DNA of 23,970 nucleotides, taken from the IMG/VR virus record IMGVR_UViG_2681813429_000002. One strand, given 5' to 3'. The position numbers and the translations under genes are program-made. The stretch is from a virus. Its lineage: Duplodnaviria > Heunggongvirae > Uroviricota > Caudoviricetes. Position 1 is the stretch's first letter; the number at the start of each line of letters is the position of its first letter. Under the pieces are notes generated by a model that was not told the origin of the DNA, searched no databases, and worked only from the letters and a program-made list of their open reading frames with translations. Below, piece by piece: positions 22,810 through 23,497 of this stretch.

Positions 22810-22914
22810 GGATATTTATCAGGATTTATCGGTTTCTGAGCCCTGGATATGTTTATCAGTTCCAGCCTGTTGCCTCAGGCTGCTAACAGGTCAATACAAT
22901 CATGAGGATTATTT

Positions 22915-23187
22915 ATGGACAATAACACCATTTCTCTACAGGAGTTGCTCGACAGCATTTCCAGGCTTCGGGAAGACGTGAATACCCTTACCGTCGCCTT
23001 CTCATATCTGGCATTCTCAATTCCAAGGGAACAGATGCAATCAACGCTGGCATCAATCCAGTTTGAATCATGCAATCCCAAATGGTCTCAGGAACAACAA
23101 GACTCTTTCAGGCGGCTTGCTGTATTACTGGATGAAAAATATGCTGGTAAAATTACCATTTCGGCGGACTCTTCAGAGAACCCGTAA
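22915..23187 (+). CDS. Hypothetical acidic protein (90 aa), opposite orientation inside the lysis cassette
   Basis: ATG at 22915 with SD GAGGA 6 nt upstream. Its 3' end overlaps the 3' end of the convergent DUF1327-like gene by about 35 nt. No family recognised. Confidence 0.5.
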   Translation: MDNNTISLQELLDSISRLREDVNTLTVAFSYLAFSIPREQMQSTLASIQFESCNPKWSQEQQDSFRRLAVLLDEKYAGKITISADSSENP

Positions 23188-23497
23188 TTATTCCCGGTAG
23201 TTTTCCTCTGTAGGTTATCAACACATCCTGCGCCTCTAAAATTACGGGGCGCTTTTCCGGCGACTGCTCATCCCCTTCACATAACCCGGCAGCAACATCC
23301 AGGAAGACCTGTCTGATGCTCCTTCTGGCTGCTGCCTCATAAAACTCCAGCGCGGCACCTTCAACACGGTCCAGCGAGATGTCCAGGTCAAAAATTTCAC
23401 CGTCAAAGCGTTTTTTGTCCCGTAACGCTAAAGTTACCGTAACTTTATTCTCAAAATTGCGGATCCCTTTCACAATCAGTTCATAGTTTTGAGTCAT
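23153..23497 (-). CDS. DUF1327-like (YdfR-like) protein between holin and endolysin (114 aa)
   Basis: N-terminal ~70 residues (MTQNYELIVKGIRNFENKVTVTLALRDKKRFDGEIFDLD...VEGAALEFYEAAARRS) resemble the family that occupies this position in some E. coli prophages; from memory, not verified. SD GGGGAGAG precedes the ATG. Confidence 0.55.
   Translation of the reverse strand: MTQNYELIVKGIRNFENKVTVTLALRDKKRFDGEIFDLDISLDRVEGAALEFYEAAARRSIRQVFLDVAAGLCEGDEQSPEKRPVILEAQDVLITYRGKLPGIITGSLKSPPKW

Follow-up and report, generated by a model that had tools for sequence, protein, structure and literature searches.

A small gene in reverse orientation between holin and endolysin in a lambdoid Escherichia coli prophage, the probable cargo of a two-gene moron

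The stretch of DNA analysed here (the window; 23,970 nucleotides (nt) of the IMG/VR virus record IMGVR_UViG_2681813429_000002, Caudoviricetes) comes from a lambdoid, HK97-like prophage of Escherichia coli and represents its late region, in which all late genes lie on the minus strand. Pfam-supported gene calls comprise tail tip J, tail L and M, the tape measure, a capsid/protease fusion, both terminase subunits, an HNH endonuclease, Rz, Rz1, a Phage_lysozyme endolysin, a DUF1327/YdfR gene (ydfR) and a phage 21-type holin. On the opposite strand, between ydfR and the endolysin gene, is a 90-codon open reading frame (ORF90). We find that ORF90 is a real, conserved and selected protein-coding gene, and we consider it probable that it is the reverse cargo of a two-gene moron inserted between the holin and endolysin genes, specifying an accessory protein that would be made in the lysogen or early in infection and be shut down by late transcription. 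Comparison of many loci shows this selected gene to be mobile between slots of late operons, with a promoter block that it has in common with cassettes of unrelated cargo. A preliminary description, made from the nucleotide sequence alone, had drawn attention to the plus-strand frame starting at 22915, to its GAGGA ribosome-binding site with a 6-nt spacer, to its location in a 343-base-pair (bp) gap and to its overlap with the 3' end of the convergent DUF1327-like gene. All of these are present, the overlap amounting to 35 nt (23153-23187). Coordinates are collected in Table 1.

In RefSeq the product of ORF90 is annotated as hypothetical protein WP_000369850.1, and its UniProt name is Ybl58. 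It matches the profile phrog_2411 over residues 1-90 of 90 with an expectation value (E) of 1.1e-58, PHROG 2411 being a family of unknown function. The exact protein sequence occurs on at least 1000 contigs. An identical 601-bp stretch is found in many E. coli genomes, and at least 80% of these 601 nt are covered in 1052 of 5426 complete genomes. The 167 loci that were fetched contain 43 distinct nucleotide versions of ORF90, nearly all of them intact. For seven diverged Escherichia versions, compared over codons 1-79 (outside the overlap), the pooled ratio of nonsynonymous to synonymous polymorphism (pN/pS) is 0.26 in the ORF90 frame versus 1.1-1.6 in the off-frames. The frame remains unbroken in variants with a synonymous divergence (dS) of up to 0.8, whereas the competing antisense frame breaks, and both the start codon and the ribosome-binding site are kept among variants. 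This antisense frame of 68 amino acids (22875..23081, minus strand) was considered as the true gene and rejected; its low pN/pS of 0.30 is set aside because it shares its third codon positions with ORF90 and because its stop codons fall at differing positions across variants. Together with the existence of distant homologues, these results bear out the earlier proposal of a genuine gene at this position.

The preliminary description had called the protein acidic, helical and of unknown family, and this holds. ORF90 has an isoelectric point of 4.5 and a net charge of -5.5, with no hydrophobic stretch of transmembrane strength. The structure prediction that had been suggested was carried out with AlphaFold2 on a 21-sequence alignment and yielded three helices (residues 8-35, 38-51 and 59-77; mean predicted local distance difference test score (pLDDT) 79.6), followed from residue 80 by a disordered tail (pLDDT <50). 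Pfam, NCBIfam, PADLOC, PDB-sequence and fold searches gave no informative match for ORF90, and the PADLOC defence profiles recognized no family for ORF90, YdfR or the other partners, apart from one weak match (E 0.005) in P0076 only. HMMER, run exhaustively against 1.84 billion representative proteins, recovered only 20 clusters related to ORF90. Its distant homologues, from Klebsiella, Atlantibacter, Sodalis and Citrobacter, are 81-97 amino acids long with 24-40% identity. The family has a common core, L..VN.L..AFSYLAF…FES.N, with conserved residues L11, L18, N23, L25, A28, F29, Y31, L32, E51, S52 and F65, and its named members all belong to the Enterobacterales (Escherichia, Shigella, Citrobacter, Klebsiella, Atlantibacter and Sodalis). 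No paper on ybl58 or WP_000369850 was found in the literature within reach of the search, which did not extend to subscription journals.

In the Qin prophage of E. coli K-12, ydfR directly abuts the endolysin gene rrrQ with no reverse gene between them. A three-way alignment that included K-12 Qin and E. ruysiae beside the window shows homology that runs from the endolysin gene to ∼22819 and resumes at ∼23300, at about codon 67 of ydfR, so that ∼480 bp in the window stand against ∼110 bp at the same position in K-12 Qin. The swapped module consists of the 48 C-terminal codons of YdfR, ORF90 and the region upstream of ORF90. In other strains the same ydfR-X-endolysin slot holds unrelated reverse cargos, of 98 amino acids in E. 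coli HUE1 (locus L305, 2585-2881) and of 79 amino acids in E. coli NC101 (locus L306, 2606-2845), the latter a relative of gp23 of phage HK022. The comparison with related prophages that had been proposed thus shows ORF90 to be an insert, absent from K-12 Qin and replaced by other cargos in HUE1 and NC101.

In almost all Escherichia loci the gene order is holin, ydfR variant, ORF90, endolysin, and ORF90 is also carried by phage Chlobot and by the Stx2k phage phiSTEC1575. The Citrobacter homologue converges on a gene of 238 amino acids that is followed by another type of holin and endolysin, and in loci L086 and L087 ORF90 is retained where the N-domain of ydfR has been deleted. More distant homologues lie in reverse orientation between tail genes M and L (L169, L176) or between the spanin and terminase genes (L171), while those of L177, L168 and L175 are solitary chromosomal genes or have an autotransporter gene nearby. 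The unit of a DUF1327 gene plus a reverse gene recurs in both tail and lysis slots. Because its homologues occupy tail, spanin-terminase and chromosomal sites, we conclude that ORF90 is probably not tied to lysis.

Some of these loci have features of their own. In phiSTEC1575-Stx2k (L180, 2165-3803) holin, ydfR and ORF90 are followed by another lysis cassette of a different kind, with two holin genes and an M15 peptidase, and are themselves located downstream of stx2AB and an IraM-like gene. The distant member of 92 amino acids in L177 (4001-4279) is situated on the chromosome between dinI and bssS and is co-directional with both. The L175 member (2542-2811) is a paralogue of 89 amino acids with 58% identity that lies outside phage late operons, beside an AIDA-type autotransporter gene and an IS3 remnant. 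It is widespread in the Enterobacteriaceae, with at least 1000 contigs, some of them plasmids.

The least variable part of the locus lies upstream of ORF90: within Escherichia the pairwise difference over 22785-22874 is 0.025-0.056 versus ∼0.08-0.16 in the coding parts, and the adjoining stretch 22875-22904 is the most variable noncoding part. The 22806-22855 block matches the promoter blocks of L305, L306, L304 and L291 nearly base for base and also aligns with that of L303, and the cargos of these cassettes are unrelated. L305 and L306 represent the ydfR-X-endolysin slot, and L304 and L291 have a DUF1883 cargo beside a holin gene. Of 5426 E. coli genomes, 2719 cover at least 80% of an 89-nt probe spanning the 5' end of the lysozyme gene and the promoter block, indicating that ORF90 shares a common hot spot with several other cargos. 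A TAnnnT hexamer is fixed 6-7 nt before a conserved (U)CAGCC in every cassette read, and TATGTT in the window lies at this standard distance from (U)CCAGCC, which would place the start of transcription near 22861.

This block also holds repeats. The sequence TTTATCRG has only three copies in the whole window, all within 45 bp, where 0.88 would be expected window-wide; the first two copies lie inside the shared promoter block and the third where canonical cassettes (described below) read TTAAGCAT. The inverted repeat ATCAGG-N18-CCTGGATA is unique in the window (0.00 expected by chance), and in other cassettes its arms are conserved and its interior varies. Further downstream are a perfect 7-bp inverted repeat, CAGCCTG/CAGGCTG (22863-22869/22876-22882), and the inverted repeat CCTGTT/AACAGG (22866-71/22885-90). 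The direct and inverted repeats in which the preliminary description had seen signs of protein-mediated regulation are therefore present, but they are not private regulatory sites of ORF90: two of the TTTATCRG copies and ATCAGG...CCTGGATA belong to the promoter block of many cassettes, and the two inverted repeats that had been pointed out are part of a derived leader.

Three other assignments for this region were dropped. A promoter TTGCCT-19 nt-TACAAT would have a 19-nt spacer, would start inside the ribosome-binding site and would lie in the most variable noncoding region. A LexA box was rejected for CCTGTT…AACAGG, as for CTGT…CAG in canonical cassettes, on spacing that was judged wrong by eye. 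A sigma-28 -10 element, GCCGATAA, resembles the leader of L003 and was discarded for want of the -35 TAAA. As a separate observation, a 16-nt inverted repeat of 81% complementarity (22782-22797/22855-22870) brackets the endolysin start codon and could enclose the endolysin translation start on the late mRNA; its folding is no better than that of shuffled sequences. Comparison of folding with shuffled sequences gave z scores of -1.2 for the window leader, -1.2 for the region after ORF90 and 0.0 for the late-strand endolysin start, none better than the shuffled controls.

Cassettes that we call canonical begin, in the direction of the small gene, with a hairpin and A-run (a late-strand terminator), ATATCAGG, ∼19 nt, CCTGG(T/A), TAnnnT and 6 nt, and continue with UCAGCC(C) and hairpins 1 and 2, the latter with GAUGGCUGAUUA as its invariant loop, followed by an AAGGA ribosome-binding site and ATG. 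The shared block pattern …ATATCAGG-N-CCTGG[T/A]TAnnnT is found at 22806-22855 of the window, where the late-strand hairpin and T-run are missing because the block borders on the endolysin start. When viral contigs were scanned with the pattern TCAGCC-N15-45-ATGGCTGAT, most matches were due to chance, ∼15 of 120 being real. These ∼15 loci have the full element ahead of small frames of 65-89 amino acids that are unrelated to ORF90 by profile and hhalign, and hhalign found no homology among the cargos themselves (probabilities ≤5%).

The canonical leader is ∼75 nt long, as in L253 (6130-6207, minus strand), HK022 (L307, 1876-1954) and ES18 (L308, 1876-1953), and was represented by an alignment (A5) and a covariance model (R1). 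In a structure test on 16 leaders, 94% of cells were standard pairs, 10 pairs had changed on both sides and 0 of 500 shuffles reached the observed value, whereas structures slid by 1-3 columns left 25-47% of cells paired. G-U pairs lie on the cargo-sense strand, which identifies it as the folding strand. Independently, RNAalifold predicts a pairing between the 5' UCAGCC and the loop GGCUGA, and this putative pairing is invariant except for two C-to-U changes that keep a G-U pair. The model built from these 16 leaders also matches loci outside its training set (four E. coli genomes, L241, L167, L003, L173 and L252), and it matches upstream of HK022 gp23 with 90.6 bits and upstream of ES18 gene 25 with 74 bits. 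Distant members of the ORF90 family have a canonical leader as well (L169, L171, L176, L173, L085 and L003).

By blastn the canonical 153 nt occur in 227 E. coli genomes and 24 phage records, where they are unannotated save for an occasional hypothetical-protein call and the terminator of the ES18 depositors. Rfam yielded no matching family, either for the window or for 19 cassette loci, and no description of the leader was found in the literature searched, which excluded subscription papers, notably the original HK97/HK022 genome paper. Carriers among temperate phages of Enterobacterales include HK022, HK633, mEp213, mEp043, ES18 and SPN3UB. We give even weight to the view that promoter block and leader form a widespread, undescribed expression module for unrelated small genes inserted in reverse, with the leader acting as a common post-transcriptional control or RNA-stability device, and that the ORF90 lineage shed most of it. 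What remains in the window is UCCAGCC…GGCUGCUAAC, which can form a 7-bp hairpin with CCUGUU/AACAGG as an alternative pairing; judged by their sequence, these elements are remnants of the canonical UCAGCC / GGCUGAUUAAC leader. A promoter block that serves many unrelated reverse cargos, and a covarying leader RNA absent from Rfam and from the searched literature, are the less expected outcomes of this work.

Lambda bor (and iss) is a reverse-oriented moron next to lysis genes, and lambda bor is expressed from the prophage; Bor and Iss genes were also seen beside lysis genes in the loci that we examined. Like ORF90, lambda bor is a small gene opposite the late strand and beside the lysis cassette. 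It differs in that Bor is an outer-membrane lipoprotein encoded downstream of Rz, whereas ORF90 is acidic, predicted to be cytoplasmic and encoded between ydfR and R, and the two sequences are unrelated.

Closer likenesses are found in HK022 and ES18. We define here a class of reverse cassettes of the HK022 gp23/ES18 gp25 type. The depositors of HK022 labelled genes 22 and 23 'moron gene product' (gp23 also srb); as in the window, the two form a convergent pair of small forward and reverse genes in the late operon. HK022 gp23 has the same promoter block as ORF90 plus the canonical leader, whereas the leader of the window is only derived, and its slot lies between tail genes I and J rather than among lysis genes. 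A relative of gp23 (26% identity, E 2e-7) is the cargo of NC101 in the same slot as ORF90, and gp23 itself shows no detectable relationship to ORF90 (E 0.003 by profile in a set of ∼30 sequences, which is marginal). ES18 genes 24 and 25 ('possible moron; function unknown') lie between tail genes M and L, again a different slot. Like YdfR, gp24, the forward partner, belongs to DUF1327: it scores 30.7 bits in Pfam, above the cut-off of 25, and matches a DUF1327 protein of E. coli in BLASTP with E 1e-6. It lacks the C-terminal tail of the window variant. Gene 25 has the canonical leader and putative terminators annotated by the depositors on both sides, and homology of gp25 with ORF90 could not be demonstrated (E 0.0015 by profile within a very small set). 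The moron arrangement antisense to the late operon that the preliminary description had recognized is thus of the same cassette type as these depositor-annotated morons. By contrast, ydfR of K-12 Qin, whose N-terminal 66 residues are the same domain as in the window partner, has no reverse gene and an unrelated C-terminus.

A moron is a gene, or a group of genes, that has been inserted into a phage operon and is expressed independently (definition quoted in PMC2629481). ORF90 is present or absent at the same position of related collinear operons (K-12 Qin, HUE1, NC101), is reverse in a late operon and converges on a small forward gene. Homologues in tail- and terminase-proximal slots and on chromosomes, along with the existence of frameshifted alleles, are indirect signs that it may have no role in the surrounding operon. 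A further parallel, not shown to be the same cassette, is STMMW_20121 of ST64B, which is antisense to prophage lytic genes and is transcribed from its own promoter in lysogens (PMC7067206).

We propose that the moron is made up of two genes: a DUF1327/YdfR-type forward gene, which is read together with the late operon, and a convergent small gene with its own promoter block and ribosome-binding site. This block would be of the sigma-70 type, with TATGTT as the -10 element. Since this promoter would fire against the late operon, the protein would be made while late transcription is off, in the lysogen or in early infection. After induction, head-on antiterminated late transcription and sense/antisense pairing would switch ORF90 off. 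As a soluble, acidic, ∼10-kDa three-helix protein ORF90 most likely acts by binding another protein, and its role is more likely to be a prophage accessory function (exclusion, defence or host modulation) than a part in the lysis machinery; this last step is the weakest of the proposal.

Several results weigh against this proposal. No intrinsic terminator is predicted after ORF90, so that ORF90 appears to lack a terminator of its own. A consensus promoter scan upstream of ORF90 found no promoter, because the -35 is poor, and this stands against the conserved block with its fixed TAnnnT. The canonical structured leader is missing from the window: model R1, run with filters off, has no match at 22860-22915, and its best matches in the window lie elsewhere with E ≥0.26. 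Lastly, alleles P0030, P0049, P0051, P0061, L120, L153 and L165 are frameshifted or truncated, which suggests that ORF90 is dispensable in some, possibly decaying, prophages. Frameshifts in close relatives had been named as evidence against the gene; nearly all versions are intact, and these few alleles are the part of that check that goes the other way.

The forward partner of ORF90 matches DUF1327 (PF07041) with 145.2 bits against a cut-off of 25. Codons 1-66 (23300-23497) are common to the window gene and K-12 YdfR, whereas the C-terminal 48 amino acids (23153-23299), ending in ...YRGKLPGIITGSLKSPPKW, are unrelated to the K-12 C-terminus (…EKLSEKVESYLQHQYSFKIENPANKHERPHHKYL). Residues 1-72 of K-12 YdfR (b1555) are reported to bind RNase E's catalytic domain, and RNA co-purifies with the protein (PMC13232886); this N-domain is conserved in the window gene. 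According to the preliminary description, the overlap with ORF90 might explain the divergent C-terminus of the DUF1327-like protein. Our data do not support this, because divergence from K-12 starts at about codon 67 (window ∼23300), 36 codons ahead of the overlap, and because purifying selection acts on the variant C-terminus as well (pN/pS 0.34). Over the 35 nt of overlap, pN/pS is 0.60 for YdfR codons 103-114 versus 3.1 for ORF90 codons 80-90. The recurrence of a similar tail motif in convergent partners of distant ORF90 homologues also speaks against divergence driven by the overlap. The C-terminal part of ydfR contains a 30-nt block of low diversity (0.026) at 23235-23264; a weak hairpin with TTTT on the plus strand overlaps this block and could be a poor terminator for ORF90.

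This tail motif raises the possibility that ORF90 and the tail of its partner are a functional pair, either antidote and effector or immunity and anti-immunity, one of which would be produced in the lysogen and its counterpart not until late. Five phage contexts have a small forward gene that converges on an ORF90 homologue, and four of the partners end, like the window variant of YdfR, in a motif similar to ...I[KRE]G.[LI]....I[TF]G[SD]L..P... In shuffling tests five partner pairs gave p values of 0.0005-0.0125 at the same offset from the C-terminus, and K-12 YdfR has nothing comparable. The shared motif thus suggests a pairing, and so does the fact that selection within the overlap acts on the frame of the partner. 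We nevertheless regard the pair as unlikely: the motif is short and was put into a pattern once the sequences had been seen, no partner accompanies the chromosomal members of the family, L086 and L087 retain ORF90 with a mere remnant of ydfR, and the cassettes with other cargos have other partners.

The position of ORF90 between the holin and ydfR genes and the endolysin gene, and its constant linkage in Escherichia loci with the variant YdfR C-terminus, could also indicate a dedicated regulator of lysis that sets timing, for example by binding the holin, the signal-anchor-release endolysin or YdfR. This seems improbable in view of the contexts described above, where homologues occur between M and L, between spanin and terminase genes, beside other holins and endolysins and alone on chromosomes, and where unrelated cargos occupy the slot in other strains. 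Moreover, ORF90 is antisense to the operon that it would have to regulate and would be silenced exactly when the lysis genes are on, and it has no membrane segment.

A similarly small probability attaches to the idea that function resides in the RNA, with the protein secondary, the plus-strand transcript acting antisense to ydfR and the holin gene to damp leaky late and lysis expression in the lysogen. With no terminator after ORF90, read-through into both genes is plausible, the promoter block is more conserved than the cargo, and a precedent exists in STnc6030 of prophage BTP1 (PMC7067206). These points are countered by the clear purifying selection on the ORF90 frame, by the persistence of the protein family at identities where the DNA can no longer be aligned and by chromosomal members that have no late operon to oppose. 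That ORF90 is a chance or decaying frame without function, as some frameshifted alleles and a purely hypothetical annotation might imply, is contradicted by the selection analysis, the 43 mostly intact versions, the core kept in distant homologues and the conserved start codon and ribosome-binding site, and is highly improbable.

A two-gene moron with ORF90 as its reverse cargo is an uncharacterised addition to the moron class, and its arrangement will not surprise a specialist. Given how common ORF90 is in E. coli (1052 of 5426 genomes) and its presence in a Stx2k-converting phage, it is a candidate for a prophage accessory function. The ydfR-endolysin junction emerges as a hot spot where one promoter block serves interchangeable small cargos, the block lying beside the endolysin gene in about half of the complete E. 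coli genomes. If the leader is a regulatory element, it would offer a single handle on the expression of a whole class of small proteins expressed in lysogens, as well as a search key for finding them.

Table 1. Positions of ORF90, its upstream elements and the flanking genes in the window
Feature	Position	Strand	Remarks
ORF90	22915..23187	+	90 amino acids, ATG start; WP_000369850.1, Ybl58, PHROG 2411; cassette cargo gene
Shine-Dalgarno GAGGA	22904..22908	+	6-nt spacer to the ORF90 ATG; (G/A)AGGA kept in variants
Promoter block GGATATTTATCAGGATTTATCGGTTTCTGAGCCCTGGATATGTT	22806..22855	+	adjoins the endolysin start codon (CAT 22807-22809); from alignment with other cassettes
-10-like hexamer TATGTT	22849..22854	+	TAnnnT in all cassettes; putative, assigned by position
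Inverted repeat ATCAGG-N18-CCTGGATA	22818..22849	+	covers the -35 and spacer region; candidate operator/activator site
Three TTTATCRG direct repeats	22815-22822, 22825-22832, 22852-22859	+	all in 22815..22859
Short derived 5' leader	22860..22914	+	UCCAGCC...CAGGCUGCUAAC, hairpin, CCUGUU/AACAGG alternative pairing
ydfR/DUF1327 variant	23153..23497	-	late-strand partner gene, 114 amino acids; Pfam DUF1327 E 7e-43
Convergent 3' overlap of ORF90 and ydfR	23153..23187	both	35 nt
Swapped module	22820..23300		approximate breakpoints; stands in place of ∼110 bp of K-12 Qin
Endolysin gene (Phage_lysozyme)	22276..22809	-	Pfam; flank of the slot
Phage 21-type class II holin gene	23502..23717	-	Pfam Phage_holin_2_1; coordinates mapped from RefSeq annotation; flank of the slot

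Near the cassettes of two other loci we noted pairs that resemble toxin-antitoxin genes, namely a HicA/HicB-like pair in Citrobacter (L003, 5087-5770), judged by eye, and a ParD-like/ParE-like pair with Pfam matches in L086 (1589-2123). In the window, the ∼560-nt stretch between the endolysin stop and Rz contains at ∼22150-22190 a GC-rich hairpin (AAAACCCCG…CGGGGTTTTT) with A/T runs on both sides, which resembles a bidirectional terminator inside the lysis cassette. The late region also has a second small reverse gene, at 20528-20728 on the plus strand between the HNH endonuclease gene and Rz, which has no canonical leader and encodes a 66-amino-acid DUF3950 protein (YnfO/YlcI-like, Pfam E 3e-19).

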